Positions 42,885-60,703 of a DNA stretch of 64,000 nucleotides are shown here, piece after piece; the stretch's first letter is position 1, and each line of letters opens with the position of its first letter. The DNA comes from an uncultured Gemmatimonadaceae bacterium (lineage in GTDB: Bacteria > Gemmatimonadota > Gemmatimonadetes > Gemmatimonadales > Gemmatimonadaceae): assembly GCA_963781585.1 (NCBI GenBank), contig CAWAGQ010000008.1, positions 320,001 through 384,000 of the forward strand, written 5' to 3'. The notes under the pieces are model-generated. The model was not told the DNA's origin and searched no databases. It worked only from the letters and a program-made list of their open reading frames with translations. The translations under genes were made by a program, and so were the position numbers.

Positions 42885-43478
42885 TCAGAAGGTGATCGCG
42901 ATACGCAGGCCGTTGCGTGGTCCGGGAAGGAGCGACACTCGTCGCGGCAGCGGAACACCGACCCACTGTTCCGCGCGAAATCGCGAGCCGATAAATCCAC
43001 CAATGACGGCTCCAGCCAGCGCACCCAGTCCGGCTGTCAATGGCCGGCTGTACTTTCGCGAGGTGTCAGAGGGCGTGAAGGACGCCGCAAAGAGCAGCCC
43101 GCCCGCGGCACCGCCGGCAGCGCCAATGACGGCGCCGCGTCGAATCAACGGGCCGTACGAGCGCCGCTGTCCGATGCTGGTCTCGATACGCTGTACCTGG
43201 TCGAGCGTGACGGACCAAAGGCCTCGACCGGCGCCTTCTTCGACCAGCACCAGGGTATCGGCGCGCATCTCGACGTAGTTGGCAACAAGGGGCGTGACAA
43301 AAACGGTGGCATGCACCCGTACACGCGCCCCGGGAACGAGCGGTGTGCCGCCTGGGGCGACAGGGTCCCCCTGCTGCGCAAGTGCACGGTGGACAGGCAC
43401 CGCGAGGCACACGGCCGCCATCACTAAGGCTTGCAGACGCAAAAGGTTAGTCCTCGGCAGCGATCGACTCGGAGACAC
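42885..43478 (-). CDS. Hypothetical exported protein with glycine-zipper helices
   Basis: Signal peptide; GAVIGAAGGAAGG and GLGALAGAVIGG. Confidence 0.7.
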   Translation of the reverse strand: MSPSRSLPRTNLLRLQALVMAAVCLAVPVHRALAQQGDPVAPGGTPLVPGARVRVHATVFVTPLVANYVEMRADTLVLVEEGAGRGLWSVTLDQVQRIETSIGQRRSYGPLIRRGAVIGAAGGAAGGLLFAASFTPSDTSRKYSRPLTAGLGALAGAVIGGFIGSRFRAEQWVGVPLPRRVSLLPGPRNGLRIAITF

Positions 43479-43830
43479 ACACGCGGGGCCTACCGCGAAT
43501 AGTAAACCGTGTACATGTCAAATCGTGGTGGCCAGCAATCCGTACTAGGACGGTCCAACTCCCTGGAGCGTAATTGCGGCTGCCTCATCGCGCCCGGGCC
43601 ACGACAGTGGTGCGGACCAATCCGGCCGCCGGGACATCCGTCTCGTATCCCACGGTACTAGCAGCATGCCGCGAACTCGAGAACCGCCACCGACGGCGCC
43701 AACCATGACGGGGCTGGAATGGAGCTGGACCGACGCCCCTGGATATTGAAACGTAAACCTGCCAGCCGGCGAGTGCCGGACAAGTGACCGGTGCGCAGTT
43801 CACGATGGTGTGCCCGAACACAGGTGCCCG

Positions 43831-43875
43831 CGCACACATGCTCGCGCACACATGCTCGCGCACACATGCTCGCGC
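43831..43875. repeat. Tandem repeat, 3 x 14 bp CGCACACATGCTCG
   Basis: Three exact head-to-tail copies in intergenic DNA. Confidence 0.95.
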
Positions 43876-44083
43876 GAACCGGCCTGGTGAGAATCCGCCG
43901 AAGTGCGGGACGTACGAGCGGATGAAGTCCACTGTCCAGCCTTAAGTGGACGGCTGATTCCACGCTCCTCACCGGATGGCATCGCAGTGTGCAGCGCGAA
44001 CTCGCCTCATGATTGGTGTGCGGGCCGTGATCGCTCTAACTTGGGTTGACCAGAATCGCTCTCAGCCCCCGGATCCAGAAGAC

Positions 44084-45403: not shown

Positions 45404-45467
45404 CGCCCCCCCGAACCTGGTCCGTTCGCAAGCGCGGCGGCTCTCATGGCGAGTTCACAAAGGAGAA

Positions 45468-46067
45468 ATGTCAATGTCCAGACGGTCTTTAGCTGCGGCC
45501 TGCGTGGGGGCGCTCGCGCTGACGGGCGCGCCGATCGCCGCTCAGAGTGCGCGCATTCCGCCGCGCGACGAACAGATCGCGGCCGCGGTTCTGCCGTTGC
45601 CCCCCCAACTTCGGGCGCCGGCGACAGTGCTGGGATACAGTTCCAATGGAAAGTTGATCGTGCTACGGAAGGGCACGGGAGACATGACCTGCCTCGCCCA
45701 CAATCCGAACGAGAAGAGCTTCCACGTCGCGTGCTATCACAATTCACTCGAGCCGTTCATGGCGCGCGGCCGAGCACTGCGAGACCAAGGTGTGAAGGAC
45801 CCCCAAGTTGACACCGTGCGATTTGCCGAGGCGAAGTCGGGGAAGCTGAAGCTCCCTTCAGGGCCGGCGAGCCTGTACCAGCTTTTCGGTGGCACCTTTG
45901 ATCCGAAAACGGGCACTGTGACGGGGGCTCAGGCCTTGTACGTGGTCTACATCCCTTATGCCACCGGTGCCACCACCGGCTTATCGGAGCGGCCTATCGA
46001 GGGCGGACCGTGGCTCATGTATCCAGGCACTCCCAAGGCTCACATCATGTACACGCCGAAGATGTGA
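45468..46067 (+). CDS. Hypothetical exported protein
   Basis: SD AAGGAG, signal peptide, PWLMYPGTPKAHIM C-terminus. Confidence 0.75.
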   Translation: MSMSRRSLAAACVGALALTGAPIAAQSARIPPRDEQIAAAVLPLPPQLRAPATVLGYSSNGKLIVLRKGTGDMTCLAHNPNEKSFHVACYHNSLEPFMARGRALRDQGVKDPQVDTVRFAEAKSGKLKLPSGPASLYQLFGGTFDPKTGTVTGAQALYVVYIPYATGATTGLSERPIEGGPWLMYPGTPKAHIMYTPKM

Positions 46068-46241
46068 GTTTGGTTGACATTACTGTTGAAACACTTTACG
46101 TGATAGTGAGTTAGACGATACTCCCGCCGAGTTTGTGCAAACAGCGTCGCTCAGTCCGTGGCTGGGTGACGCTGTCGCTTATTCAGATGATGCTGTCGCG
46201 ATAGCGTCGGATTGCGTTCCTGGGCACACGATTCTAGCGTT

Positions 46242-46261
46242 ATATCCGGATATAGCGATAG
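46242..46261. promoter_or_regulatory. Candidate SahR-type operator
   Basis: ATATC-CGGATATAGC-GATAG imperfect 20-bp dyad directly before the regulator start. Confidence 0.5.
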
Positions 46262-46262
46262 A

Positions 46263-47201
46263 ATGTCAGCACGACCTCTCGTACACGACCACCTCAGCAC
46301 ACTGGCCGAGCCGACTCGGGGGCGGGTTCTGCTTACGCTCGAGAGCCAGGAACTCACCGTCAGCGAGCTCTGCTCGGTTCTGCGACTTCCACAGTCGACG
46401 GTGAGTCGACACCTCCGCGTGCTCGGCGATGAGGAATGGATCGTCTCACGCCAAGAGGGCACGAGCAGGTACTACGCACTAAGTCCCGGCCTCGACGGCG
46501 GTGCCAGGCGGCTGTGGGAAGTGGTGCGCGACGATCTACGAGACAGCCGGGCGGCGGTGCAGGATCGGCAACGGCTGGAGCGGGTGCGTGACGGACGAAG
46601 TGCAAAGTCTCGTGCGTTCTTCGCCAAATCGGCGTCACGCTGGGATTCCATGCGGGCCGAGCTCTATGGTGATCGAGCCGATCTCATCGCCCTGTTCGGA
46701 TTGCTGAATGACCAGTGGGTGGTAGGCGACCTTGGCTGCGGAACCGGGAGATTGAGCGAAGTGCTGGCTCCCTATGTGTCGCGTGTCGTGGCGGTTGACG
46801 CCTCGCCGGAAATGCTGTCGGGAGCCCGCCTCCGACTCGCGCCATACCAGAATGTGGATTTGCGTGGCGGCGAGTTGGAGGCGCTGCCGATCGATTCAGC
46901 GTCGCTGGACGCGGCGGTACTTTCGCTCGTGCTTCACCATACGGTGGATCCGGTACGCGTGCTCGCCGAGGCTCAGCGTGTGGTGCGTGCCGGGGGCCGG
47001 CTGCTGATTGTGGACATGCTTCCGCACGATCATGAGGAGTATCGGCAGCAGATGGGGCACGTGTGGCTCGGGTTCGCGGAGGGCCAGGTTCAAGAGTGGC
47101 TGCACGATACTGGATTCACGAGCGCGATCATACGACGTCTGACGGCCGATTCAGCCGCAAAGGGCCCCGCGCTATTTGCCGCGTCGGCACGCCGAACGTG
47201 A
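46263..47201 (+). CDS. ArsR HTH + SAM-methyltransferase regulator (SahR-like)
   Basis: LPQSTVSRHLRVL ArsR helix; DLGCGTG; LHH; HVWLGF; upstream of ahcY. Confidence 0.9.
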   Translation: MSARPLVHDHLSTLAEPTRGRVLLTLESQELTVSELCSVLRLPQSTVSRHLRVLGDEEWIVSRQEGTSRYYALSPGLDGGARRLWEVVRDDLRDSRAAVQDRQRLERVRDGRSAKSRAFFAKSASRWDSMRAELYGDRADLIALFGLLNDQWVVGDLGCGTGRLSEVLAPYVSRVVAVDASPEMLSGARLRLAPYQNVDLRGGELEALPIDSASLDAAVLSLVLHHTVDPVRVLAEAQRVVRAGGRLLIVDMLPHDHEEYRQQMGHVWLGFAEGQVQEWLHDTGFTSAIIRRLTADSAAKGPALFAASARRT

Positions 47202-47408
47202 GCCCTGTGGTTCGACAGGGTGCTTCATCCTGCATGATCAATACTGGGGCGGGCGAGACCAGATACGCCGCGCGCCCCGGATGAGGCGCAAATCAGAAGA
47301 CAGTGCAGTACGAGGCACCGCCGGAGAACCTGGAGTGAAAAACGCGAGTGTCGAACCGACCAAGTGGAGACGGGAAAGTCGGTCCATAAGACCTGCCGAG
47401 GAAGAGCA

Positions 47409-48893
47409 ATGACCACGACACTTCAAGCGAATGTGAATGCCGCGGACGCGGTGGATCGGCCTCCCTTCAAGGTCAGGGACCTGGCCCTGGCGGAGTGGGG
47501 GCGGAAGGAGATTCGGCTTGCCGAGCACGAGATGCCGGGTCTGATGGCGATTCGATCGGAGTACCGCGATCGCAGGCCGCTCGCAGGCGCGCGGATCATG
47601 GGTTCCCTGCATATGACGGTTCAGACCGCGGTGTTGATTGAGACGCTGGTCGAGCTGGGTGCGGAGGTTCGCTGGGTTTCGTGCAACATCTTCTCGACGC
47701 AGGATCACGCGGCGGCGGCAGCTGCTGTTGGACCGGAGGGCACACCGGACAGTCCGCGCGGTGTTGCGGTATTTGCGTGGAAGGGGGAGACGCTCGAGGA
47801 ATACTGGTGGTGCACGGAACAGGCGTTGATGTGGCCGGACGGGGGTGGTCCGAACCTGCTACTGGACGATGGGGGTGACGCCACACTGCTGGTTCACAAG
47901 GGGGCGGAGTTCGAGCGAGCAGGCCGGGTGCCGAGCTTCAATGCCGCGGTGGAACCTGAAGAGTGGGGCGTGATTCTGGATCTGCTGAGCAAGGAACAGC
48001 GATTGCGTCCCGGCCGCTGGACAGAGGTCGTGGCGGGGATTCGCGGAGTCTCGGAAGAGACGACAACTGGCGTTCACCGGCTGTACGAAATGATGCGTGC
48101 GGGAACGCTGCTTTTTCCCGCGATCAACGTGAATGACTCCGTGACGAAGTCCAAGTTCGACAACATCTACGGCTGCCGGCACTCGGTGGTAGATGGACTG
48201 AACCGAGCGACCGATGTGATGATGAGCGGCAAGGTGGTGGTGGTTTGTGGGTATGGCGAAGTGGGGAAGGGATGCGCGCAGGCGCTGCGCGGGCAGGGCG
48301 CCCGGGTGGTGGTGACGGAGATCGACCCGATCTGCGCGTTACAGGCCGCGATGGAAGGATTCGAAGTAACGACCGTGGATGACGTTGTGGATCGCGCCGA
48401 CATCTTCATTACCGCGACGGGCAACAAGAACGTACTCACCGTCGGACACATGCACCGAATGAAGGACAAGGCGATCGTCGGGAACATCGGTCACTTCGAC
48501 AACGAGATCGACATGGCCGGGCTCAAGCGGGTCCCGGGTATTCGGCGGATCAACATCAAGCCGCAGTACGACGAGTGGGAGTTCCCGGATGGCCACGCGG
48601 TGCTGATTCTTGCCGAGGGGCGGCTGCTCAATCTCGGATGCGCGACGGGGCATCCGAGCTTCGTGATGTCGGCGTCATTTTCGAACCAGGTATTGGCGCA
48701 GATGGAGCTGCATCAGCATGCAGACCGGTACAAGCGTGAGGTCTACACGCTCCCGAAGCATCTGGACGAACAGGTGGCACGCCTGCACCTGCCGAAAATC
48801 GGTGCCAAGCTCACGCGTCTGACCGAAGAGCAAGCAGCGTATCTGGGGATTGCCCAGGACGGACCCTTCAAGGCGGATCACTACCGCTACTAG
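47409..48893 (+). CDS. ahcY: Adenosylhomocysteinase
   Basis: [52 protein letters not shown]. Confidence 0.98.
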
Positions 48894-48895
48894 AC

Positions 48896-49435
48896 CTAGC
48901 GGGGCGTGAGAACGGGGAGGCGGCTTGTAATGGCGGCGAGCGCGTTTGCAAGGCGGGCGGATCCGAGTCCCTGCACTGCGGCTACGGGGGCAGCCAGTCG
49001 CTCCAGCGTTTTCACGAATCCGGCATGGAGTTCCGCGCGCGAGAAGGGGCGATCGCGCACGTCGTCGGCCTCCCAATCGATGTCGGTGTCCAGGAGGAGA
49101 TAGAGATCACCGAGACGCGCGCGTGCAGTGGACATGAGCCATGGCGGAGCCTCAGCGAAGTAGTGCTCGGCGTAGACGATTGTACTCACGAGATCAGTAT
49201 CGTGTACGGCCAGGCCGGACGCAGCTGCGATCACGGTGTCCTCCAGTGCGATCTGGCCGCGCGCGATCGGTTCGATGTCGGCGGCAGTGAGCGTCCTCCC
49301 GACTGACGCCGCGAACTGGCGTGAGTACTCTGGCGACCAGGGTGCGCGGAAGTGATCAGCGAGGAGCCTCGCCAAGGTCGTCTTCCCGGTGCACTCGGAC
49401 CCGGTGACCACGATACGGAGGGGCCGGGCGTTCAT
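48896..49435 (-). CDS. NadR-type nicotinamide riboside kinase-like P-loop protein
   Basis: GSECTGKTT, PEYSR, DTD, WEADDVRD; downstream of pnuC. Confidence 0.88.
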   Translation of the reverse strand: MNARPLRIVVTGSECTGKTTLARLLADHFRAPWSPEYSRQFAASVGRTLTAADIEPIARGQIALEDTVIAAASGLAVHDTDLVSTIVYAEHYFAEAPPWLMSTARARLGDLYLLLDTDIDWEADDVRDRPFSRAELHAGFVKTLERLAAPVAAVQGLGSARLANALAAITSRLPVLTPR

Positions 49436-49478
49436 TGGGCGCGCGGGTTGTTCACCGTTTGCCCCGTGCGCGGCGAGA

Positions 49479-50084
49479 TCAGGCAAGAGCGGGAGCGCTC
49501 TCTTCCTGCGGCTCCACGGTTCGCGCCGTGCGGTACGATCGCAGCCACTGCAGGTGACCCATCGCAGCAAGGGCGAGGAAGGCCGTGTACTGGATGGACG
49601 TGAGGTAGAGGTGCTTCAGCAAGATGAACATCCCGACGTACACGACGTCGAGGAGAATCCAGAGCCCCCAGTTTTCGAGAATCTTCCGCGTCATCATCCA
49701 CTGGGCCACGAGGGAGAAGACAGAAAGGAACGCGTCGAGATACGGAAGCGCCGCGTCGGTGGACCTGCGCAGAAACGTGCCGAGGGCGGCCGACGCGAGG
49801 AATCCAATTGCGGTGAGGACGGCCGCCTGGCGCAGCGCCAGGCGTGAGACATGGAGCTCGCTGCGGTTCTCCCCGCCGTACAGCCACTGGTACCAGCCAT
49901 AGAAGGAAAGGACGAGATACACGACCTGGAGTCCCATGTCGGCATACAGCTTCTCGCGGTGGAAGATCAGCGTGTACAGGCCAACGTTGACTATCGCGGT
50001 GGGCCAGCTCCAGATATTCTCGCGCGTGCCGAGAAAGACGCTGACCAGGCCGAATGCAACGGCGCATATCTCGAGCGGGGACAT
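49479..50084 (-). CDS. pnuC: Nicotinamide riboside transporter PnuC
   Basis: WSWP, YGWYQW, PYLDA, AQW..TRKILENW. Confidence 0.93.
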   Translation of the reverse strand: MSPLEICAVAFGLVSVFLGTRENIWSWPTAIVNVGLYTLIFHREKLYADMGLQVVYLVLSFYGWYQWLYGGENRSELHVSRLALRQAAVLTAIGFLASAALGTFLRRSTDAALPYLDAFLSVFSLVAQWMMTRKILENWGLWILLDVVYVGMFILLKHLYLTSIQYTAFLALAAMGHLQWLRSYRTARTVEPQEESAPALA

Positions 50085-50156
50085 TGTTGCTGGCAGGATT
50101 GTCAGGCGGGCGCGATGCGAAAGTCGTGGAAAGGCGGGGAGGGTGCTGATGTGGGG

Positions 50157-50645
50157 TCAGCGGGGTCCGGTCAGCAGCTGCCGCAGAATGGTTCCGGCGT
50201 GCTGCGCTGAATCCGCGAAGTGAACAGCGGCAGTTGCGTCGAGCCGCCGGAAGAACGAGCGGGTGCCGGCATCGGCAGCCACGAAGACGATCGGACGCCG
50301 AGCTCGCAGGGCGTGGGCGGCCTCGACGGCAGTGCCGGGACTCATTCCGCAGACCGCGAGGGCGTCGCTGGAAAGGACAATAACGTTGTTGCGAGCCTGA
50401 CCCATCGCGGTGACGATGGCCACCGACAGAAAGGGGCTGGCGGCGGCATCGTTTGCATCGGGGAGAATGCCGATCACGGTGCCGCCAGCGGAGCGGGCTC
50501 CCCGACTGGCGGCGTCCATCACGCCGCTGGCTACACCACCGTTCACGACAATCCATCCTTCGCCAGCGGCCAGGGCGCCTAACGTGGCCGCATTTCGCAG
50601 GTCGTCGGGACTGGCGCTCTGGCCCGGCCCAACGATGGCCAGCAC
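50157..50645 (-). CDS. TIGR00725/LOG-like (SLOG) Rossmann-fold protein
   Basis: GG...GVMDAASRGA, GILP, TAMGQARN, GTAVE; start uncertain. Confidence 0.85.
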   Translation of the reverse strand: MLAIVGPGQSASPDDLRNAATLGALAAGEGWIVVNGGVASGVMDAASRGARSAGGTVIGILPDANDAAASPFLSVAIVTAMGQARNNVIVLSSDALAVCGMSPGTAVEAAHALRARRPIVFVAADAGTRSFFRRLDATAAVHFADSAQHAGTILRQLLTGPR

Positions 50646-50688
50646 CGGCGCCCGACCGCGGTCACCCGCGGAACCCGAGGTGGACGCC

Positions 50689-50808
50689 TCAGGACTTGGG
50701 CGGGGGAGTCGGGGGCGCGGGCGCCTTGCGCTTCTTGTGGCGTCTGGTCTTTCCATAGCTGCCACGGTTGATCTTTCCACGGCGTGAGCGTTGGTCTCCC
50801 TTTCCCAT
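50689..50808 (-). CDS. 30S ribosomal protein Thx (bTHX)
   Basis: MGKGDQRSRRGKINRGSYGKTRRHKKRK matches the Thx pattern GKGD.R...GKI..G.YGK.R; SD GGAG. Confidence 0.88.
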   Translation of the reverse strand: MGKGDQRSRRGKINRGSYGKTRRHKKRKAPAPPTPPPKS

Positions 50809-51154
50809 CGACGAGTCTCCAAGCGGGGGGGGGGTGGGCGAAATTGGCAGCCGCCTATCGAGTGACTGAGGAACGAGTTGACAAGGTATGGAGTTGAGCG
50901 GAAGGCTGGCAGTGGCGATGTCCCGCGCGCGTCTGTTCCATGTTGCGAAACGCGCGGGAGAAATGTCCTCATTAAAGCGGGCCGCCCGGCTCTCATCGTA
51001 AGCGTATGTCATCCAACAAGAAAGACCATGCGGGCCCAGTCGCGGGGTACTACGCCAGCGGCTGGGACCGTTTTCATGCGGGTGGAATCCCGCCCACGGA
51101 TCGAACGTGACCGACCCCAGGGTTTCATCAGATCGTGCGCGTCGAACGCCGCCG

Positions 51155-52435
51155 ATGAATCGGCGGCTCGAGGAGCGCCGCACGCCGGTTGGTGTGCCAT
51201 CGGCGCCGGTGGGCCACCGGAAGCGAGTGTGCGTGGTGATCGGAACGCGTCCGGAGGCGATCAAGATGGCCCCGGTGATTACGGAGCTCGAGCGTCACGC
51301 CGAGGAATTCGAGACCGTGATCGTCGCCACGGCACAGCATCGAGAGATGCTCGCGCAGGCGATGTCGGCGTTTCAGCTGCGGCCGCACATCGATCTGGGC
51401 CTGATGGCGACCCGTCAGGCGCTGTCGGACTTCACGTCGCGTGCCCTGCTGGCGCTGTCGAGCTGCTTCACCGAATTGCGGCCGGACCTCGTGCTGGTGC
51501 AGGGGGACACGACCACGGTCCTCGCGGCGGCTCTGGCAGCGCGGTATCTGGGCATTCCGGTGGGGCATGTCGAAGCGGGGCTACGCTCCGGGAGTCTGCA
51601 CAATCCATTTCCCGAGGAATTGAATCGTCGGCTGGCGAGCGTGATCGCGGAGCTGCATTTCGCGCCGACCGAAACGGCGCGCGCCAATCTACTGCGCGAG
51701 GGCATTCCGAACGATCGCATTCTGGTGACCGGCAATACCATCGTGGATGCGCTGGCGCGGATTCCGCGTCGGGCAGGATTTGACGAGCCGCGGCTGAACC
51801 TGTTGCCGTGGGTGTCGCAGCGGATGGTGTTGGTCACGGTGCATCGACGGGAGAGCATCGGAGATCCGCTGCGCGGCATGTGTCGGGCGTTAGGCGCGCT
51901 GGCGGATCGATATCGCGACCTGCTGATTCTCTTTCCGGTGCACCTGAATCCGCGGGTGCGAGAGATCGTGCTCGAGGAGCTGGCGGGGCGGGCGGGTGTC
52001 GAGCTGCTGGACCCCCTGAGCTATCCCGACCTGCTCGAAGTCGCACGTCGCAGTCTGTTTGTGATGACCGACTCGGGCGGGATCCAGGAGGAGTGCCCGT
52101 CGCTGCGCAAGCCGGTACTGGTACTCCGCGAAACCACGGAGCGCCCGGAGGTGATTCAGGCCGGATACGGGCGTCTGGTGGGGACCGATCCCACGGCGAT
52201 CGTCTCGGCGGCGTCGCAGCTTCTGGACGATCCTCTGGCACTGGCAGCGATGATTGATGGGGACAACCCATTTGGCGATGGGCTTGCGGCGGTTCGCATC
52301 GTACAGGCGCTGCACCGGTGGGCGCGCGAGGGTGTGACGGCGGGGGCAATTCCACGGGTGGTGCCGGGCGTAGGAACCCTGAGTCCGCTGGAGCAGGATC
52401 CTGCGGGAGCGGTCCGCAAGGCGACGGCCTTATGA
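51155..52435 (+). CDS. wecB: UDP-N-acetylglucosamine 2-epimerase (non-hydrolysing)
   Basis: GTRPEAIKMAPV, QGDTTT, HVEAGLRS, PFPEE.NR, TDSGGIQEE, TERPE, NPFGDG; alternative GTG at 51107. Confidence 0.96.
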   Translation: MNRRLEERRTPVGVPSAPVGHRKRVCVVIGTRPEAIKMAPVITELERHAEEFETVIVATAQHREMLAQAMSAFQLRPHIDLGLMATRQALSDFTSRALLALSSCFTELRPDLVLVQGDTTTVLAAALAARYLGIPVGHVEAGLRSGSLHNPFPEELNRRLASVIAELHFAPTETARANLLREGIPNDRILVTGNTIVDALARIPRRAGFDEPRLNLLPWVSQRMVLVTVHRRESIGDPLRGMCRALGALADRYRDLLILFPVHLNPRVREIVLEELAGRAGVELLDPLSYPDLLEVARRSLFVMTDSGGIQEECPSLRKPVLVLRETTERPEVIQAGYGRLVGTDPTAIVSAASQLLDDPLALAAMIDGDNPFGDGLAAVRIVQALHRWAREGVTAGAIPRVVPGVGTLSPLEQDPAGAVRKATAL

Positions 52436-53250
52436 GAGGGAGGGGACTGGCTGTCGCTGCCCGACTGGCGATGGTCTCGGCGACGTGTGGCGCGCTCGCC
52501 GGGCAGCTGCTTGCCCAGTCGCCCGACAGTTCGTCGGGCCGCAATCGTCGGATCGACCTTTCCGTGGACCAGCATCAGGTGAGCCATGGACTGGGAGATT
52601 GGCACAGCGCCGAACTGCGTCTGGTAATTCCACAAGCAGCGGGGCGCACCGTGTGGTATGGGGACGCGTTGTGGCGGCAGGCGTTCCATGACGAGGGTGT
52701 GTATGCGTCGGTGGCCGTTCAGCAGGTATTGTCGCGGGACTGGTTCGTCTTCGTGAGTCTGGGCGGCGGCAGCGGCGATTTCCTCTTTCCGGATCTCCGC
52801 GCGGACGCCTCCTTGTCGTACAAGTGGCTCGCCAGCCAGCGACTGGTGACGACGGTGGGAGGGACGATGGTTGACGCGAAGCGCGGCTATCGTGAAGAGA
52901 GCGTCTTTGCGGCGTTCGATGCATATCCAGTGGCGGGGATGGTCCTCGAAGCCGGAGTCCGTGGGAGCCGGACCTCGCCGGGGGGCGTGGATTCCCAGCG
53001 GACGTTTGGCGCACTCACGTTAGGCAGCGAAGGAACCCGCTATGTCACGTTTCGGGGCTCCACTGGCACCGAGGGATACCAACTACTGGGTCCGAGCACG
53101 GTGATAGCCAAGTTCACCAGCCACGAGGGCGCGGTGGGGTGGCGTGAGTGGCTGGGACGGACATGGGGAGCGCTGGCCCAGGGCGAGTACTACACGAACC
53201 CCAGCTATCGGCGGACGGGGGTGACGATCGGTGTCTTCGCGCACTGGTAG
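52432..53250 (+). CDS. YaiO family outer-membrane beta-barrel protein
   Basis: Signal peptide, SHGLGDW, amphipathic strands, terminal aromatic W; ATGA overlap with wecB. Confidence 0.75.
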   Translation: MRGRGLAVAARLAMVSATCGALAGQLLAQSPDSSSGRNRRIDLSVDQHQVSHGLGDWHSAELRLVIPQAAGRTVWYGDALWRQAFHDEGVYASVAVQQVLSRDWFVFVSLGGGSGDFLFPDLRADASLSYKWLASQRLVTTVGGTMVDAKRGYREESVFAAFDAYPVAGMVLEAGVRGSRTSPGGVDSQRTFGALTLGSEGTRYVTFRGSTGTEGYQLLGPSTVIAKFTSHEGAVGWREWLGRTWGALAQGEYYTNPSYRRTGVTIGVFAHW

Positions 53251-53266
53251 GACGCCGCCGTATGTG

Positions 53267-54106
53267 ATGATGGCGAAGGGTCGCGAGCGCCTGCTCGCGG
53301 AGCTTCGCCGGCGCGGAGCGCGTGGCGGCATCATCGGGCCGCACCGCGCCCTGGTAAAGGGGCGTCTCACGCCCTGGCGTCTTACGAGCATGGTCCTCAT
53401 TCCGGTGCTGCTCGCGAGCGGGACGGGATTGCTCCTGGCGCCGCTGAGCGACTGGTGGACGTGGGTGCTGACACTGCTGCAACGGCCACTGGGTCTGCCC
53501 GGCACGGTAGCGCGCGACGCGGTCACGATCGCCGGCCGCTTTTCCTTGGCGGTGCCGTACTTCACGACAGACGCGCCGCTTCCGGGCCCATCGCACTACT
53601 GGCTGGTTGGAGGGATCTGCGCCGTGGCGCTGGGTGCCTCGTTCATCCTGTCGCGCCGCTTCACACCGCTCATCTATTTCCTGCGCTTCGCGGTGCTGAT
53701 CCAGCTCACCGCCGTTCTCAATTTCGTGCTCAGGGGAGGCTCCTTTCCCTACGACCTCCCCCGATATCTGGTCAGCCTGTTCCACATCGGCGCCGCGGTC
53801 CTGATTCTCATGCCACTGGTGCTGGGCTTCACGTACTTCCCGTTCAACATCGCGACCTGGCGCAAGGTTCTGGTGACGGCACTCTGCGTGGGCCATATCG
53901 CGGTCCTGCTTCCCCTGCAGGTCACGGTGCACGCCTACCTCATCCATCACCTGTCACTGCTGGTGATGCCGACCCTGTTCTTCCTCTGGGGGATCCTGCT
54001 GCACCTGTTCGTGTTCGTGGCCCTCTACGCTTGGGCGATGAGCTGGCCGGACGTGACGCCTCGAGTTTCGGCGCGCGGTATGGCCACATCCACGGGCCGG
54101 GTCTGA
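53267..54106 (+). CDS. Uncharacterised polytopic membrane protein
   Basis: About 6-7 hydrophobic helices; IGPHRA N-terminus, AWAMSW C-terminus. Confidence 0.8.
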   Translation: MMAKGRERLLAELRRRGARGGIIGPHRALVKGRLTPWRLTSMVLIPVLLASGTGLLLAPLSDWWTWVLTLLQRPLGLPGTVARDAVTIAGRFSLAVPYFTTDAPLPGPSHYWLVGGICAVALGASFILSRRFTPLIYFLRFAVLIQLTAVLNFVLRGGSFPYDLPRYLVSLFHIGAAVLILMPLVLGFTYFPFNIATWRKVLVTALCVGHIAVLLPLQVTVHAYLIHHLSLLVMPTLFFLWGILLHLFVFVALYAWAMSWPDVTPRVSARGMATSTGRV

Positions 54107-54108
54107 CG

Positions 54109-55455
54109 ATGGTCATCACCGTCCTGCTCGTCCTGCTCTACGTTGTGGTCGCGGTGCTGGTGGCATATACCATCCGCCACTACGTGTTCACGCTCAATCG
54201 ACTGTTCGGTCGGCAGCGCCAGCCGTACGTGGACGTCACGGAGGCCGATTGGCCGCAAACGGTGGTGTTCATCCCGTGCCACAACGAGGAGAAGGTCATT
54301 GCCGGATCGCTGGATGCGCTTCTGGCGAACGACTATCCGCATGACCGCCTGACGATCATCCCGATCGACGACCGGTCGACGGACAGCACCGGTGAGATTC
54401 TCCGCGACTTCGCGGAGCGGCACCCGAATCTGGTCAAGCCGGTCTTCCGCAACGAAGGCCAGGCAGGAAAGGCGGCGGCGCTCGCGGAGACCGGTGCGCG
54501 GATTGGTGGCGATGTACATCTGGTGTTCGATGCCGACTACATCCCCGGGCCGCGACTGCTCAAGCAACTCGTAGCGCCGTTCTTCGATCCCGAGGTGGGG
54601 GCTGTGATGGGGCGTGTCGTCCCACATAACGTGGGTGACGGACTCCTGGTGCGGCTGCTCGATCTCGAACGGGCCGGCGGATACCAGGTGGATCAGCAAG
54701 CCCGCATGAATCTCGGTCTCATTCCGCAGTACGGTGGGACGGTGGGAGGCGTGAGGCGGGAGGCGCTGGCGAGCGTGGGTGGCTGGCGGACCGATACCCT
54801 GGCCGAGGATACGGACATCACCTACCGGCTCTATCTGCGCGGATGGGAGGTCGCCTACCAGAACCGCTCCGAATGCTATGAGGAGGTGCCGGAGACCTGG
54901 AATACGCGCATCCGGCAGATCCGGCGGTGGGCACACGGGCACAATCAGGCGCTGGGACGCTACCTGGGTGCGCTGTTGCGGAAGCCTCGTCATTTTCCGC
55001 TGTCGAGGGCCGCCGATGGCATCCTGCTGCTGGGGGTGTTTGCCGTGGCACCGGTGCTCCTGTTCGGGTGGGCCGTTGCGATTGCGCTCTACTACCTGGG
55101 ATACCAGCTGCCTACCGGTGTCCTGGCTGTCCTGATCGTCTCGGCGTTCAGCACGCTCGGTAATTTCGCGGCGTTCTTCGAGGTGGCGACGGCGACGCGT
55201 CTGGACGGCTCGCGGCACCGGGTGCGTCTGCTGCCGTTCCTGTTCTTCGGATTCCTGGTGAGTCTGATCTCGGTGTCCCAGGAGTCCCTGCGCCAGTTGT
55301 TCCGCTGGCCGGGAAAGCGCGCCGTCGTCTGGCACAAGACCGAGCGCTACCGCGCCAATAACCACGTTGTCTCCGGGAATGGCATGACGAACGGTGCCGT
55401 ACGGGCGAACGGCGATGCCTTGAAGCGCCGCCCGGACGACGAGGAGAAAGCGTGA
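54109..55455 (+). CDS. Processive GT2 polysaccharide synthase (CesA/IcaA/PgaC-like)
   Basis: N-terminal TM, IDDRSTD, GKAAAL, FDAD, AED, QIRRW, C-terminal TMs, WHKT. Confidence 0.93.
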   Translation: MVITVLLVLLYVVVAVLVAYTIRHYVFTLNRLFGRQRQPYVDVTEADWPQTVVFIPCHNEEKVIAGSLDALLANDYPHDRLTIIPIDDRSTDSTGEILRDFAERHPNLVKPVFRNEGQAGKAAALAETGARIGGDVHLVFDADYIPGPRLLKQLVAPFFDPEVGAVMGRVVPHNVGDGLLVRLLDLERAGGYQVDQQARMNLGLIPQYGGTVGGVRREALASVGGWRTDTLAEDTDITYRLYLRGWEVAYQNRSECYEEVPETWNTRIRQIRRWAHGHNQALGRYLGALLRKPRHFPLSRAADGILLLGVFAVAPVLLFGWAVAIALYYLGYQLPTGVLAVLIVSAFSTLGNFAAFFEVATATRLDGSRHRVRLLPFLFFGFLVSLISVSQESLRQLFRWPGKRAVVWHKTERYRANNHVVSGNGMTNGAVRANGDALKRRPDDEEKA

Positions 55456-56552
55456 GCGCGCTGGTCTTCGCCGTTCTGCTGCTGGGCACCGCGGCGTGGT
55501 TCCTTCTGCCACTGACACCGGCGCTCAAGGAACTCCTCCGGCCGAGCGATGCCGAACCGCTGACGATGGTCGGGCAGGACTCCGGCGATCTGATGATCTT
55601 TGCGGAGGGGTTTCGGAACTATCTGCGGAGCCAGGTTCCGGAAGCAGTCTCGCCGGGCATGATGATGTCCGGCGCGGCGGATCACCTGCCTGACGGAACG
55701 CCGTTCGTCCACGTGAACGGGCGACCCGAAGTGCTTCAGGAGGCAGCAGACGCACAGCGGCTCATCTCGCAGCTGGTTCTGGCGAGCGGACCGGTACAAC
55801 TGCCGGGCGGGGAGACGTTTCTCCTGGAGCTGTACGCCCGCGACACGTTCATGGGTGGGCCGGGAGCGGTGTACCGCGCGATTCTCGGTGAGAGCGACGT
55901 GAGAATCGGCGAAGGATCCACGGTGCTGCGCTGGGTCCACGCCGAGCACGATCTCACGATCGGCGACGGGTCGCACCTCTCAAGCCGTGCCAGCGCCGTG
56001 GGCGAGATGCGGCTCGGTGAAGGCGTTCGCTTCTCGCGGGTGCGCGCCACACGTATCGTCGTGGGCGGTGAGAATCCTCTGCCTCCAGAGATCCCGGCGC
56101 CGCTTCTGGCAGGCACCATGAAGATGCCGCGGAGCGCGCGACAGGAGCGGGGATTCATTCGGGTCGTTGGTGATCTTTCGATTCCTCCTGGTGCATCGGT
56201 TCTCGGGACGCTCGTCGTGCGTGGATCGCTGCGGCTCGGCGCGAACGCGCGAATCTGCGGCAGCGTGAAAGTCCACGGCGCGTGTCATCTGGAGACCGGC
56301 GCGATCGTGGACGGGAGTCTTGTCTGTCGTGGTGACATTGATCTCGCGAAGGGTTGCCGTGTGGTGGGTCCAGTGATTGCCGATGGCGACGTGTGGCTCG
56401 GCGAAGGATGTTCGGTCGGCGCACCAGGTCATCCGGCGTCTGTCGTTGGTGCCGACGTGGTGTGCGGAACGGGGTCGCAGATCTACGGCGCGGTCACGGC
56501 ACGGGCGGACGGACAGACCGCCACTGCGCGACCCACCGCGCGCGCTCGCTGA
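55452..56552 (+). CDS. Membrane-anchored beta-helix (bactofilin-like) protein
   Basis: N-terminal TM, then repeats GDLSIPPGASVLGTLVVRGSLRLGANARICGSVKVHG...IVDGSLVCRGDI; GTGA overlap with GT2. Confidence 0.75.
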   Translation: MSALVFAVLLLGTAAWFLLPLTPALKELLRPSDAEPLTMVGQDSGDLMIFAEGFRNYLRSQVPEAVSPGMMMSGAADHLPDGTPFVHVNGRPEVLQEAADAQRLISQLVLASGPVQLPGGETFLLELYARDTFMGGPGAVYRAILGESDVRIGEGSTVLRWVHAEHDLTIGDGSHLSSRASAVGEMRLGEGVRFSRVRATRIVVGGENPLPPEIPAPLLAGTMKMPRSARQERGFIRVVGDLSIPPGASVLGTLVVRGSLRLGANARICGSVKVHGACHLETGAIVDGSLVCRGDIDLAKGCRVVGPVIADGDVWLGEGCSVGAPGHPASVVGADVVCGTGSQIYGAVTARADGQTATARPTARAR

Positions 56553-56843
56553 AACAACGAACAGCGCGCAGAGCACTGCTCGGCCAGCTCCATCCATGCC
56601 CCGCCCGTCGAGTCGTGGACAGGCGGGGGCCACGTCATGGACGCGGATTTGGCGCGCGGTCACGCGCGACGCACTGGCGCATCCGTCGTGGCATCAGCAC
56701 CGCAGGAGTTGCGTTGCGTGCGTGCCACACAACGGCGATCACGTTCGCACGCGGTGAGTTCTGACGCGCAGTCGGGGACTCCATCCGGTGGCGGATTGGT
56801 GGTTGCGCATGGCCGCCGGATCATTTGATTTGTCCAATGCCTG

Positions 56844-56857
56844 GGCACAGGGATTGC
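56844..56857 (+). promoter_or_regulatory. Candidate sigma-54 promoter
   Basis: GGCAC-AGGGA-TTGC (GG-N10-GC) about 135 nt upstream of the PEP-CTERM gene. Confidence 0.55.
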
Positions 56858-56992
56858 GAGCCAGGTCACCGGGTTCGTGTGCGCTTTCGCGTCGAACTCG
56901 AGTTGTGTGAGGCGGCGAGGGCGTAAGGCGCGAACAGTCGCCCTGATCGTGCAATCGGCACGACCGTGATGCGGCACTTGAGGTCTTGTTCC

Positions 56993-57859
56993 ATGCTGAC
57001 CAAGCGATGTTACCGGGTTGCGCTGTGTGCGACGCTGGTTGCGCCCATCGTCGCGAGCGCGCAGCGAGTCGTAACGAACGGCGGCCCGTGGGTACCTGAC
57101 TCACGCGGCTCGTCGGTCTTCGGGCTCATTACCGGCGCGAATCCCCGCTACGGAAATGGGTCGCTCCAGCTGAGCCTGACCGGCCAACTGACGGACTGGT
57201 CGTGGTTCAACCTGTTTTCGGGGGATCCGTATCTCACTCAGGGGTGGGGGCTGCTATCCGACGTCAGCGCCGTGGGCTTTGACTGGTACCGGGTAGGGAT
57301 GCCGCCGGCTGGTGACGTTCCGTGGCAAGAGCAGACGCCGGCACTCAGGCTCTACATCCGGAGTGGCGATCCGAGCTCCCCGGAATTCTCCGAGCTCGTC
57401 TGGGAGCGCTATTACAACGTGGCGAGTCCGACTCCGACCGATCAATGGGTCGTTGAGAACCTGCTGGCGGACGAGGTTTTCTGGCGATTCGTGACGGGGG
57501 AAGGGTACACGATCGCGGACTGCAGCAACCCGTCGACGATCACTCCGGGGATACCGTTGAAGACGGAGACGCCCGCTGATTGGGGCAACGGGTCGAACTG
57601 TTTTCCCTCCAACGCGGTCGTCTACGGGATCGGTGTCGGTCTTGGGAGCAACTGGCCGTACCCATATGAGGCATTTGTGGACAACGTCCGGCTCGGCTTC
57701 GGGGACCAGAATCTGACGGTGTGGGACAACTTCGAGCTGGCGGATGCGAACTCGACGCCCGAGCCCGCGTCGCTGGTGCTATTGGCCAGCGCGCTGGTGG
57801 GCGTTGGTGGTGGGGCCATGGCCCGGCGTCGGCGTCTCCGGGCGAACGCGCGAGCGTAG
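56993..57859 (+). CDS. PEP-CTERM sorting-domain surface protein
   Basis: Signal peptide; C-terminal TPEPASLVLL-TM-RRRR. Confidence 0.9.
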   Translation: MLTKRCYRVALCATLVAPIVASAQRVVTNGGPWVPDSRGSSVFGLITGANPRYGNGSLQLSLTGQLTDWSWFNLFSGDPYLTQGWGLLSDVSAVGFDWYRVGMPPAGDVPWQEQTPALRLYIRSGDPSSPEFSELVWERYYNVASPTPTDQWVVENLLADEVFWRFVTGEGYTIADCSNPSTITPGIPLKTETPADWGNGSNCFPSNAVVYGIGVGLGSNWPYPYEAFVDNVRLGFGDQNLTVWDNFELADANSTPEPASLVLLASALVGVGGGAMARRRRLRANARA

Positions 57860-57966
57860 GCCCTTCCGTTCTCATCTCCGCGGCTGGCTCCCGGGCCAGG
57901 CTCCGCGCCAGGCTGTCGCGTGCTGCGGAGCGAGCGCTACCGCGCCTAACGATTCCAGAGACCGAG

Positions 57967-58014
57967 ACGGGCTGCGGCGCCAGGATCCCCGGAGATCCTG
58001 GCGCCGCAGCCCGT
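57967..58014. repeat. Perfect 21-bp inverted repeat (hairpin)
   Basis: ACGGGCTGCGGCGCCAGGATC-CCCGGA-GATCCTGGCGCCGCAGCCCGT between convergent genes; no U tract. Confidence 0.85.
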
Positions 58015-58319
58015 GAACGGCGACAACCCAGTCGCCAGCGTACAACGTAAGACGAACCACGCATTTGCGCGAGTCCGTGGTGCGGAATCGCGCCGGCATC
58101 TCTGCCGTACGGCTGCCACTCTGATGCCGTCCTCCGGTGCGGTGCCCGACCAGCCGCCGTCGCGATCGCACCGCTACCATGACCAAGGACCTCGGCTGGT
58201 GGCGATTTGGTCACCGGTTCACGAGGTGCTCACGACGGTACGCCCCGGCGGCTGGTCCCGGATGCCCTCCCCGAAGGCAGTGCCTAACGAGGCTGCCGCC
58301 AGGCGGGGAGGCGTCGCGT

Positions 58320-58796
58320 CTACTGCAACAAGCTCACCTTGACCGCAAAGGCAACCGAATTGACGCCTTGAGCAACCATCGTGGCCGAGATGAAATAGTC
58401 GCCTGCAGGGAGACGCTGCGCAGATCCCGGGGGGTAAAAGGCGGAGCCACCTTTCCAGACAAAGATCTGCTCCACCGTGCCGTTGCTGGGGAGCACCATC
58501 TGCGACGGTATCGGAACGCAGTCATATCTGCCGCCCGGTGGCACCACGGTCTGCGAGGTCGTGTTGCGAATGAACACCTCGATCTGGCACGATGTGGGGA
58601 AGAGAATGCGAACCTGATCAGCCGTGGGATTCATGGCGCTCACGGTGATTGTGTCTGTTGCTCCCGGCGCGAGCTGGCTCGAACTCACACGGATCTGCAG
58701 CCCGAATGTCTGTTCCGGCGCTTTCGGAACCGTGCTTTGCTGGACGCAGGCTGCCGAGACGATAATCAGAGCTGGGACGAACGGACGTCGCGCCAT
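58320..58796 (-). CDS. Lipoprotein with Ig-like (BsuPI-like) domain
   Basis: Lipobox SAAC; LPAGDYFISA motif. Confidence 0.7.
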   Translation of the reverse strand: MARRPFVPALIIVSAACVQQSTVPKAPEQTFGLQIRVSSSQLAPGATDTITVSAMNPTADQVRILFPTSCQIEVFIRNTTSQTVVPPGGRYDCVPIPSQMVLPSNGTVEQIFVWKGGSAFYPPGSAQRLPAGDYFISATMVAQGVNSVAFAVKVSLLQ

Positions 58797-58979
58797 GCTT
58801 CCATACTACGGTGGATGGGAACGACGCGACACCCATGCGGGGGCCGCACGCACTCAGGCGCCCCTTGCAACTGCGGGCCCTCGGGGAAAGTTCCGCCAGC
58901 AGGACAGGAGGAAGATCCAATTGCTCCCCTCGATGCCTGACACGAGCGCCGAAGGCCGGCGCGGTAACGCAGGACAGGT

Positions 58980-59795
58980 GTGAACACGGATCGAGCAGGG
59001 TCCAACCGTGGCGCGCCGTCAGGTCAGCCGGAGATCCGGCGTCTCTCGCACGACAGCACCAACCGCAGAATGTTCGAGTTGGCACGTCCCTTCCTTGTCG
59101 CAGGGGCGCGGGTTCTCGACCTCGGTGCGGGTGAGGGCTACTTCTCACGGCTGGTTGGCGACCATCTCCGTCATGGCATCGGCGTGGATCCGTCGGCGGT
59201 GCTCTCGGCGTGTGACGCGGTTCCCGGGCAGTTCCGGTACGCCGACGTGGCGTGTGACGGGATCGGCGATGCCGGCGATCTGCCCTACGCCGACCAGAAG
59301 TTCGATCTGGTCTGCAGCCTGGAGGTGATCGAACATGTGGAAGATCAGTTCGCGTTCCTTCGAGAGGCGCACCGGGTGCTCAAGCCTGGCGGTATGCTGG
59401 TCGTGAGCACTCCAAACGTGCTCAACATGAATTCGCGGTGGCGGTATCTGCACTCGGGGTTCGCGCAGCTGTTCGATCCGCTTCCGCTGGACGAGCGAGA
59501 CATCGTGCATACGTCCGGTCACATTCATCCGGTGTCGTACTACTATCTGGCGTACGCGCTGCGAGCCGCCGGATTCCGTGGAGTCGGCGTGACCTACGAT
59601 CACTACAAGCGATCGGCTGTTGCGCAGCTGGTGCTGCTGGCGCCGCTGATCGGGCTTGGACGCCTCGGGTTCCGGCTGCGCATGCGCCGCAAGCGTCGCC
59701 GCGAGATGGAGCAGAACCGCGACTTCGTGAAAGCCATGGATTCGTTCGCGATGCTGACGTCGCGGAGCATCATCGTTTCGGCACGTCGGGCCTGA
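58980..59795 (+). CDS. Class I SAM-dependent methyltransferase
   Basis: [27 protein letters not shown]. Confidence 0.9.
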
Positions 59796-59821
59796 AAGCG
59801 CACTCGCGCGCAGATCGATTC

Positions 59822-60703
59822 ATGCCCGAGCTGCCCGACATCACCGTCTATCTGGAAGCGCTTTCGGCGCGGATTCTGGGCGCGCGGCTGAACGGGATCC
59901 GGGTGGTTCGCCCATTCGTGCTGCGATCCGTGGATCCGCCGCTCGCCCGGGTGGCAGGATGCCGCGTGGAGGGCCTGCGCCGAATCGGGAAGCGCATCGT
60001 GCTGGCGTTCGAGGGCGACATCTTTCTGGTAATCCACCTGATGATCGCGGGCCGGCTGCGCTGGCGCCCGCCGGGCAAGGCGATCCCGCCGTCTCTGGTG
60101 CTCGCCTCCTTCGATTTTCCGGACGGCACTCTGGTCCTGACGGAAGCGGGGAAGAAACGTCGTGCATCGCTGCACGTGGTGAGCGGGGAGGAATCGCTTC
60201 GCCAATTCGATCGCGGCGGCCTCGAGGTCTTCGACGCCTCAATGGCGGCGTTCGGGGCGCGCCTGCGGAGCGAGAACCACACGGTGAAGCGGTCCCTGAC
60301 GGATCCGCGTCTTTTCAGCGGCATCGGGAACGCGTACTCGGATGAGATCCTGCATCGAGCCCGCCTCTCGCCGCTCGTGCTCACGTCTCGACTCACGGAT
60401 GACGAGATCGCGCGCCTGCAGGCAGCCACAAAGCAGGTACTGGAAGAGTGGACGGCACTGCTGCGTGAAGAAACAGGCGGCGGTTTTCCGGAGCAGGTGA
60501 CCGCCTTTCGTGAAGGAATGGCGGTGCATGGTCGTTTCGGGAAACCGTGTCCGGTATGCGGCGCGCCCGTGCAGCGGATTCGCTACGCCGACAATGAGAC
60601 GAACTACTGCGCACGTTGCCAGACTGGCGGACGCCTCCTGGCCGACCGCGGACTTTCGCGGTTGCTGCGAGCGGACTGGCCGAGGTCGATAGACGATCTG
60701 TAG
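59822..60703 (+). CDS. Fpg/Nei family DNA glycosylase (MutM paralog)
   Basis: [19 protein letters not shown]2TH, CPVC...CARCQ zinc finger. Confidence 0.92.

Follow-up and report, generated by a model that had tools for sequence, protein, structure and literature searches.

Few synthase-dependent polysaccharide systems have been studied, namely cellulose, poly-N-acetylglucosamine (PNAG), alginate, Pel and Nfr, and the studied plan comprises a synthase of glycosyltransferase family 2 (GT2) or family 4 (GT4), a receptor for cyclic di-GMP (c-di-GMP), a scaffold of tetratricopeptide repeats (TPR) and a large barrel; PgaC, for one, is stabilised by PgaD and c-di-GMP. In the Nfr system, according to the accessible part of its published account (PMC8669469), NfrB is a GT2 with an MshEN c-di-GMP domain, NfrA a TPR-barrel protein and YbcH an anchored periplasmic protein, and WecB (NfrC), whose gene is often linked to nfrB homologues, supplies NfrB with UDP-N-acetylmannosamine (UDP-ManNAc), as a preliminary description of the DNA studied here had also stated. 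The other pair which that description invoked, yaiO and yaiP of Escherichia coli, is likewise as quoted, with both genes on the same strand in K-12 and an IS2-broken yaiX between them. Here we report on a 64,000-nucleotide stretch (the window) from an uncultured Gemmatimonadaceae bacterium (assembly GCA_963781585.1, contig CAWAGQ010000008.1, positions 320,001 to 384,000), in which five genes, A to E, encode a WecB epimerase, a YaiO-family barrel, a protein of six transmembrane (TM) segments, a GT2 and a TM-anchored beta-helix protein, and probably constitute a synthase-dependent exopolysaccharide machine of an undescribed type.

The five open reading frames (ORFs) are all on the plus strand, tightly packed with overlaps and ending at 56552, in agreement with the co-oriented gene set of the preliminary description:

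51107-52435, plus strand: gene A, WecB, a non-hydrolysing UDP-N-acetylglucosamine (UDP-GlcNAc) 2-epimerase (TIGR00236, PF02350); its start is maybe ATG 51155 or later
52432-53250, plus strand: gene B, a YaiO-family barrel (PF19413, TIGR04390); the longest frame begins at 52318
53231-54106, plus strand: gene C, a six-TM inner-membrane protein of an unnamed family; longest frame, from GTG 53231
54109-55455, plus strand: gene D, a membrane-embedded cellulose-synthase-like GT2 (PF13641); the longest frame begins at 53455
55452-56552, plus strand: gene E, a single-pass TM-anchored beta-helix protein according to its predicted model

The junctions also read as described before: A and B share an ATGA overlap at 52432, the C stop codon TGA (54104-54106) is followed by a 2-nucleotide gap and then the D ATG at 54109, and D and E share a GTGA overlap at 55452. 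The longest frame of C overlaps the end of B by 20 nucleotides, and the database form of C begins at ATG 53267, yet relatives also conserve residues encoded before this ATG. Scans with Pfam and NCBIfam found no deacetylase, TPR, PilZ or MshEN domain in the five proteins, just as had been claimed, and no TPR, PilZ, MshEN or GGDEF domain in A to E or in the neighbouring gene F (see below). Protein A passes the cut-off of the wecB equivalog TIGR00236 (452 versus 210.15 bits), matches PF02350 with 371.6 bits and does not reach that of the hydrolysing NeuC model (80.4 versus 235.9 bits), which upholds its naming as a UDP-GlcNAc 2-epimerase. Four wecB matches were found in the assembly, two in the two copies of the cluster that it holds and two elsewhere; since the genome keeps other wecB copies, that of the cluster looks dedicated to it, paralleling the WecB dependence documented for NfrB in the part of the Nfr account available (PMC8669469).

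The conservation of this arrangement was surveyed by scanning one genome per species with a motif of C, which gave 211 stretches, 172 of them confirmed by tblastn; the best 80 and the copy on contig 5 of the same assembly make up 81 loci, found through C alone, in which all ORFs were scored with family hidden Markov models (HMMs) built from the loci. The same five families were present in 55 of the 81, and the arrangement is far beyond chance. The order ABCDE was seen in 43 loci and, with split hits, in one more; the remaining orders were ACDE with an opposite-strand B a few kb further downstream (4 loci), DEABC (4), DEACB- (2), BCDE with A close by on the opposite strand (1), DE and then a C-B fusion (1), ACDE (4), E-D-C (1) and shorter pieces (20: CDE 6, BCDE 5, ABC 4, ABCD 1, BC 2 and AC 2). 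Twenty-six loci are partial, and in several (such as L005, L043, L047 and L054) the fetched stretch begins no more than about 150 bases from C. E lies directly 3′ of D in all 72 loci holding both, and all loci with the complete Gemmatimonadota order have wecB within the cluster, as do the DEABC and DEACB- forms of other phyla.

By label, 67 of the 80 loci are from Gemmatimonadota, and the other 13 are from Sulfuricaulis, Acidiferrobacteraceae, the cultured Cognatilysobacter terrigena, three Burkholderiales-type metagenome-assembled genomes (MAGs), Rhodothermaceae, two Bacteroidota, Krumholzibacteriia, two unclassified ‘bacterium’ entries and one Kuenenia-labelled MAG. The last of these (L045, Candidatus Kuenenia stuttgartiensis) has the Gemmatimonas-type A-B-C-D order, scores like the Gemmatimonas loci and is probably mis-binned. 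The neighbourhood survey that the preliminary description had called for thus found the genes together, in varied orders, in at least four phyla (Gemmatimonadota, Pseudomonadota, Bacteroidota and Krumholzibacteriia). Their phyletic patterns match as well: among 401 genomes from the phylum, 26 have C (25 of 395 high-quality ones; 12 of 148 genera) and 25 have E, all 25 also having C and a YaiO match, and in the single genome with C and no E the match to C is partial. The module is accessory and patchily distributed, and its parts travel together.

Protein D (448 aa) matches PF13641, PF13632 and PF00535 with 107.2, 86.8 and 86.4 bits, respectively, and its sequence reads as a cytoplasmic catalytic domain preceded by a single TM helix and followed by further TM helices at the C-terminus. 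The motifs DAD141-143, ED233-234 and Q270/R273/W274 (QxxRW) do not vary across 53 aligned D orthologues, and with the TM helices that follow the catalytic domain they bear out the earlier assignment of D as a processive GT2. The best curated model for D is PgaC_IcaA (TIGR03937), reaching 127.5 bits against a cut-off of 422.3 over positions 4-286 of 407, followed by NodC and cellulose synthase; the model of the XrtP-associated GT2 is matched weakly over its full length (66.6 bits, cut-off 520). The solved sequences nearest to the D profile are 6yv7, a small family-2 glycosyltransferase (98 bits), and BcsA (71 bits), and in the C. terrigena locus (L078) the D HMM gives the PgaC-like GT2 paralogues 113 bits versus 651 for the cognate D.

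A confident pair of D and C emerged from the structure prediction that had been suggested for the GT2 and the membrane protein, with a complex score of 0.80 compared with 0.00 for the best of three controls; of 157 solved complexes 116 attained this score, as did 2 of 215 mismatched pairs, a rough calibration since unpaired custom alignments were used here. The D-C runs share at least 74% of contacts, with a partner predicted local distance difference test score (pLDDT) of at least 81. In the predicted interface, the D C-terminal TM helices 325-387 pack against the C helices 130-156, 170-193 and 235-261, and C residues 26-34, with the HRA motif, contact D at 169, 193, 197, 252-253 and 263-268, beside the QxxRW region. 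Solved complexes with a chain resembling C were not found.

Protein C itself has no match in Pfam or NCBIfam at E≤0.1, and a credible Pfam match was obtained for none of 119 members of its family. A word-based search returned 34 relatives; an exhaustive profile search retrieved 498 cluster representatives at E≤1e-3, of which 349 remained at E≤1e-10 and 195 at E≤1e-30. In public records, Gemmatimonadaceae names are attached to relatives of both C and E. Hydropathy gives C six TM segments, and its AlphaFold model (pLDDT 93.6, predicted template modelling score 0.88) begins with an amphipathic helix and a long first TM helix, followed by a beta-hairpin at 81-99, which a topology reading puts on the periplasmic side, and five further helices. 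Foldseek found no solved relative (best match E=1), and the exhaustive VIA comparison gave at best Z 8.7 to a designed helical protein and otherwise generic helical hairpins, by which the fold is not proven new. At the N-terminus, a conserved run rich in Arg leads into GG-x-I-x-x-HRA (residues 14-28, window ~53270-53350), and this segment, placed as it is in the predicted complex, could be a gating or ligand-binding element.

Natural fusions also link C to its neighbours. Among 17 long forms of the C family that were scanned, six were C-YaiO, one C-GT2 (P0206) and one E-C (P0177); the others comprised one with DUF11 and a tail of the type IX secretion system (T9SS), one with a zinc ribbon and seven with no further match. 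In the Krumholzibacteriia locus (L083), a stop-free 573-aa ORF holds C at 3-271 and YaiO at 284-573, and residues 10-366 of P0177 match the E family with an hhalign probability of 100%. A signal-peptide-like hydrophobic segment with an AxA-type site is kept right after C in the C-YaiO and C-GT2 fusions, and P0177 has no hydrophobic or TM segment between its E and C parts. Because of these present and absent segments and the Arg-rich N-terminus of C, the data are consistent with a topology in which both termini of C are cytoplasmic, the barrel is exported, D has its N-terminus outside and its catalytic domain inside, and the beta-helix of E is cytoplasmic. By the fusions and the predicted D-C complex, C is the hub of the system. 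Two other identities for C were tried and rejected. A divergent exosortase had been suggested by a sub-threshold atlas score of 0.78 and the neighbouring PEP-CTERM gene, and was ruled out, as none of the 119 members matches PF09721 and hhalign against eight exosortases of the phylum gave a probability of 0.35%; a relation to YbcH was dropped likewise, at an hhalign probability of 0.09% for the C profile versus YbcH.

For protein E, the claimed TM-anchored beta-helix protein was recovered in the predicted model (pLDDT 92.7), with an N-terminal TM helix at 2-29 and a beta-helix at about 127-357. All its Pfam matches are sub-threshold, i.e. Hexapep PF00132 with 26.1 versus 27 bits (a single repeat) and Bactofilin PF04519 with 15.9 versus 27.9 bits, so the bactofilin HMM check proposed for E came out negative; many relatives of E carry a precomputed PF04519 label. 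E has 103 full-length relatives, some named from Terriglobales; P23, E27, D33 and L37 near the membrane and W161, H163 and R179 in the first beta-helix part are invariant. Foldseek returned nothing at E≤0.001, and VIA placed residues 239-352 on BacA (2n3d; Z 7.9, root-mean-square deviation (rmsd) 2.8 Å, 102 of 103 residues aligned) and on 6ria (Z 7.9, rmsd 1.7 Å, 88 of 90 aligned), Z values in the middling range; the first beta-helix part (~127-204) had no match and was barely covered by the fold search. The C-terminal half of E is most likely bactofilin-like as modelled, and the beta-helix is probably membrane-tethered on the cytoplasmic side, judging from one fusion representative and the fold likeness. 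A hexapeptide acyltransferase like YaiX was rejected for E: PF00132 stays below threshold, NeuD scores 34.7 versus 160.8, left-handed beta-helix acyltransferases superpose by VIA with Z ~7 but an rmsd of ~11 Å, and E has no similarity to fragment 2 of yaiX, the sole fragment compared.

The barrel claimed to be YaiO-like passes both curated cut-offs, with 80.8 bits for PF19413 YaiO (cut-off 23.9) and 123.3 bits for TIGR04390 (cut-off 32, positions 2-230 of 230 covered); B starts with a signal-peptide-like segment and carries no TPR or other extra domain. By sequence, no solved relative of B was found and no YaiO structure has been solved, and an outer-membrane protein review reports, in the part available, that YaiO homology models came out as broken barrels (PMC7383365). 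From genomes with YaiO and without C, ten YaiO loci were fetched, with 51 of their 77 ORFs passed to Pfam, and a different membrane GT2 was found within 6 kb of YaiO in seven of them. Together with E. coli yaiO-yaiP, these seven loci support a general role of YaiO barrels as the outer-membrane partners of GT2 synthases. A second type of YaiO-linked cluster recurs among them (L100, L103 and L105-L109), having a GT2 with weak Chitin_synth_2 matches, usually Hpt-receiver and HEAT-repeat proteins, and sometimes GGDEF/EAL genes nearby; in one of these loci the GT2 and the YaiO barrel share a single 754-aa ORF (L106:4432-6696). In two further loci, L101:3505-5994 and L102:3617-5962, a large sulfatase-TPR fusion protein adjoins YaiO with no GT2 among the ORFs tested, and one more of the ten loci likewise showed no GT2 among its tested ORFs.

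The preliminary description had called the five genes a self-contained machine, which does not strictly hold, as a sixth gene is linked to them in Gemmatimonadota and further accessory genes accompany them in other phyla:

56966-57859, plus strand: gene F, a secreted protein with a PEP-CTERM sorting domain (TIGR02595), probable start ATG 56993

In the translation of F, a signal peptide, a C-terminal PEP motif, a TM segment and an Arg cluster are visible; TIGR02595 is matched with 19.8 bits (cut-off 16), and the protein atlas places F among PEP-CTERM clusters at 0.99. Fifty homologues of F were found, adjoining the cluster in 50 of the 81 loci either after E or before A, and all 20 that were tested pass the same cut-off (19.8-27.8 bits). 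F is, from this sequence evidence, the sixth gene linked to the cluster in Gemmatimonadota, and was missing from the earlier five-gene list; it does not occur in the loci of Proteobacteria and Krumholzibacteriia, which keep the five core genes. A canonical exosortase is encoded in the same assembly on another contig, outside the cluster, and a sample of 61 genomes from the phylum yielded exosortases in 10, versus 4 of 5 further genomes bearing C; they were detected as well in the assembly of the window (G000) and in G021. Since these genomes are related, the counts overstate independence. A paper on the Gemmatimonas transcriptome names a PEP-CTERM gene in passing, with nothing on the cluster in the part available (PMC11406998).

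In the other phyla, the accessory-gene scan covered 54 of 129 candidate ORFs with Pfam and 18 proteins with NCBIfam. Proteobacterial loci hold two extra conserved genes matching neither database and encoding exported proteins, one of ~300-400 aa with a signal peptide and one of ~620 aa with an N-terminal anchor (L067:2882-5965, L080:2770-5723, L078:10833-12707, L082:10241-11209 on the minus strand and L058:4365-5405), which may be periplasmic parts that the Gemmatimonadota form lacks. After the cluster in the two Bacteroidota loci (L071:8267-13897 and L077:8564-14215) come a large DUF11 protein bearing a T9SS sorting tail and, behind it, a BcsB-like protein, and in one database protein (P0204, 1496 aa) C is fused to a DUF11/T9SS protein. 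In C. terrigena (L078, 1580-6353), a PgaB-like deacetylase/GHL13 gene and two PgaC-like GT2 genes lie directly upstream of B-C-D-E, so that two N-acetyl-hexosamine (HexNAc) polymer systems may stand side by side. Just upstream of the Krumholzibacteriia cluster is a phage-type integrase gene (L083:3060-4286, minus strand), and the cluster may be moving on a mobile element in that lineage. Two-component genes in L081 were tried as PrsK/PrsR and rejected, scoring below those cut-offs and best with generic AtoS/AtoC-type models.

Around the cluster of the window, the flanking genes are of the housekeeping type and unrelated to it, i.e. an ArsR-methyltransferase gene, an S-adenosylhomocysteine hydrolase gene, AAA_28 and a divergent SLOG/LOG-like gene upstream, and genes for a methyltransferase, Fpg and an M28 peptidase downstream. 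The first of these encodes an ArsR-type helix-turn-helix fused to an S-adenosylmethionine-dependent methyltransferase (46212-47201) and lies directly upstream of the S-adenosylhomocysteine hydrolase gene (47364-48893), an ordinary-looking methyl-cycle pairing. One further element follows the cluster:

56558-56582, no strand assigned: inverted repeat of 10 pairs, directly 3′ of the E stop codon and lacking a T-run on the plus strand

This repeat may mark the operon end, a weak indication as it was scored only as a minus-strand terminator-like site and as the terminator-like sites in 50500-57500 show no excess (3 found versus 3.4 expected from shuffling); no promoter-like sites were found in the scan of the same interval. 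The source assembly has 5.7 Mb in 17 contigs with an estimated contamination of 7.19%, and the window lies on contig 8. A second syntenic version of window 43371-60293 is present on contig 5 (L003, 358000-376000) with 84-86% nucleotide identity including the flanks, both contigs being ~440 kb long. Because of this synteny at that identity and the contamination estimate, the assembly is probably a mixture of two related genomes in one bin and not a case of duplication, and the finding is unaffected.

From these data we infer the following working model, which as a whole we hold to be probable. The WecB of the cluster would turn UDP-GlcNAc into UDP-ManNAc in the cytoplasm, and D would polymerise HexNAc, at least in part ManNAc, at the inner face of the membrane. 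D would thread the chain through a channel formed with C, whose packing on the D C-terminal TM helices and whose reach to the catalytic domain by the Arg-rich/HRA segment are seen in the in silico complex and accord with the fusions. E, with one TM helix and a predicted fold on the cytoplasmic side, would serve as a scaffold or regulator and not as a periplasmic enzyme, and the small YaiO barrel B would carry the chain over the outer membrane with no TPR scaffold. In Gemmatimonadota, F would be processed by an exosortase encoded elsewhere and would act alongside the polymer in a matrix at the surface or in flocs. The product is most likely a HexNAc surface polymer made and exported by the cluster, its ManNAc content and its export through the barrel being suggested by gene context.

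A more far-reaching set of proposals, taken jointly, is advanced only tentatively: that the GT2 works in an obligate complex with a six-TM subunit, having no convincing match among solved structures, and that the catalytic site is gated or activated by the Arg-rich segment at the N-terminus of this subunit, maybe with second-messenger control there replacing that by PilZ or MshEN; that the membrane-tethered bactofilin-like E organises this complex from the cytoplasm; that YaiO proteins are general TPR-less exporters for several unrelated GT2 synthases; and that the whole is a class spanning phyla.

Several points weigh against the model. The system is known here from sequence comparison and structure prediction alone, and the D-C complex, although agreeing with the fusions, is a prediction from unpaired alignments and not a measurement. 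The cytoplasmic placement of E has a single fusion representative and the fold likeness as its basis, and a dedicated search for longer, fused forms of E returned none, in itself weak evidence; the Gemmatimonadota form shows no periplasmic component. B, as a putative exporter, is small (272 aa), and YaiO occurs without C or E in 20 genomes of the 401-genome sample. PgaC/IcaA, a GlcNAc polymerase, is the best curated match of D, far below its cut-off as that match is. Finally, wecB is absent from the fetched stretch of L083, and in L078 it is distant and on the opposite strand, beside the PgaB-like deacetylase and two more GT2 genes, so that the ManNAc supply may not be universal.

The last two of these points lead to the alternative that fares best, in which the same machine makes a PNAG- or chitin-like GlcNAc polymer and WecB serves another pathway or primes or caps the chain; the ranking of PgaC_IcaA, NodC and cellulose synthase among the models for D would fit it. 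We consider it unlikely, in view of the presence of wecB inside the cluster in the complete Gemmatimonadota, DEABC and DEACB- loci and of its dedicated look beside other copies in the genome, and as D stays far under the PgaC cut-off and neither PgaB nor PgaD appeared in the Pfam/NCBIfam scans (PgaD not being compared directly).

Quite improbable, in our view, is a protein-linked glycan, i.e. a chain from D-C attached to or assembled on F in Gemmatimonadota or the T9SS-sorted DUF11 protein in Bacteroidota and giving a glycoprotein or proteoglycan matrix. It would account for F staying adjacent in 50 of the 81 loci while switching side, for the DUF11/T9SS protein right after C in Bacteroidota and its fusion to C in P0204, and for the exosortase counts, whose independence, as said, is overstated; F is nevertheless absent from proteobacterial and Krumholzibacteriia loci with the core five, and C is not a detectable relative of exosortases. 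To our knowledge, moreover, QxxRW-type membrane GT2s are polymer synthases in every studied case.

Least probable of all is that nothing is exported and D-C makes a periplasmic or membrane glycan or glycolipid, as OpgH and hopanoid/lipid glycosyltransferases do, with YaiO as a porin or anchor and E as a cytoskeletal positioner, since the weak sub-threshold matches of D to the HpnB, HpnI and MdoH models, the nearness of 6yv7, a small membrane GT2 not proven to export a polymer, the small size of B and the bactofilin likeness of the C-terminal half of E are set against C-YaiO fusions in several lineages and a recurring GT2-YaiO linkage in unrelated systems, which tie the barrel to the synthase, and against the invariant QxxRW and C-terminal TM helices, a processive-synthase signature.

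The cluster keeps the synthase and swaps the rest of the studied plan for a six-TM family of ~500 sequence clusters, unnamed in databases, for a small YaiO barrel and for a bactofilin-like protein tethered to the membrane. If the exopolysaccharide machine that we favour is real, two unnamed families and the YaiO family, with the cryptic yaiO-yaiP locus of E. coli, would gain a function, inner-membrane synthesis would be seen to couple to outer-membrane export in a different way, and a matrix polymer would be indicated for Gemmatimonadota and further bacteria of soil and water, about whose surfaces little is known. No description of the five-gene module was found in the literature, a search that left most subscription journals outside its coverage and so is no proof.

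Compared with the known systems one by one, the cluster shares with Nfr an inner-membrane GT2 with DxD/TED/QxxRW, an outer-membrane barrel and the genetic link to wecB, on whose UDP-ManNAc Nfr depends, as far as the accessible part of the Nfr account goes (PMC8669469); the Nfr-type wecB link is seen here with wecB as the first gene and in the cluster in most loci. D, however, shares only 22% identity with NfrB (E=0.005); its chain stops behind the TM helices and gives no match to MshEN PF05157, a domain that NfrB has (52.9 bits). NfrA, with 990 aa, combines TPR repeats and a PF13283 barrel, whereas B is YaiO only, and NfrA as a YaiO-domain protein related to B was rejected, as Pfam puts it in PF13283 and BLASTP finds no similarity. 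YbcH (DUF4434) has no counterpart here, and Nfr has no protein like C or E.

With Pga, the likeness lies in a GT2, a small membrane partner (PgaD), an outer-membrane barrel and, as the product proposed here, a HexNAc polymer, with PgaC_IcaA at the top of the curated matches of D. The differences are the score of D (127.5 versus the 422.3 cut-off), the lack of a PgaB deacetylase and a TPR-bearing PgaA in the cluster, and the six-TM C, matching no Pfam model, that stands in the place of PgaD, the latter itself not being compared. The E. coli locus yaiO-yaiX-yaiP-yaiS similarly places a YaiO barrel beside a membrane GT2 on one strand, and E. coli YaiO and B both pass PF19413 (92.7 and 80.8 bits), but BLASTP finds no match between the two, D and YaiP are 26% identical over 210 aa (E=1e-9), and where the cluster has WecB, C and E, the E. 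coli locus carries a PIG-L deacetylase and an acyltransferase pseudogene.

BcsA-BcsB-BcsC has the same GT2 catalytic fold and motifs and the same logic of an inner-membrane partner and an outer-membrane barrel; the cluster lacks PilZ, BcsB and the TPR-barrel BcsC, a BcsB-like gene being near only in the two Bacteroidota loci. PEP-CTERM/exosortase exopolysaccharide loci are resembled in that a PEP-CTERM gene adjoins a polysaccharide cluster with an exosortase in the genome, yet here the exosortase is not in the cluster, C is no exosortase and the core five occur elsewhere without F. Of the general synthase-dependent plan, a GT2 and an outer-membrane barrel encoded together are present here, and the TPR scaffold and c-di-GMP receptor are not. 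The comparisons found no orthologue relation to Nfr, Pga or the E. coli Yai locus, so the earlier claim that the cluster differs from characterised pathways stands; and because of the comparisons with Nfr, Yai, solved structures and paralogues, it belongs to none of the studied synthase-dependent systems, although it would work like them, and is apparently undescribed.

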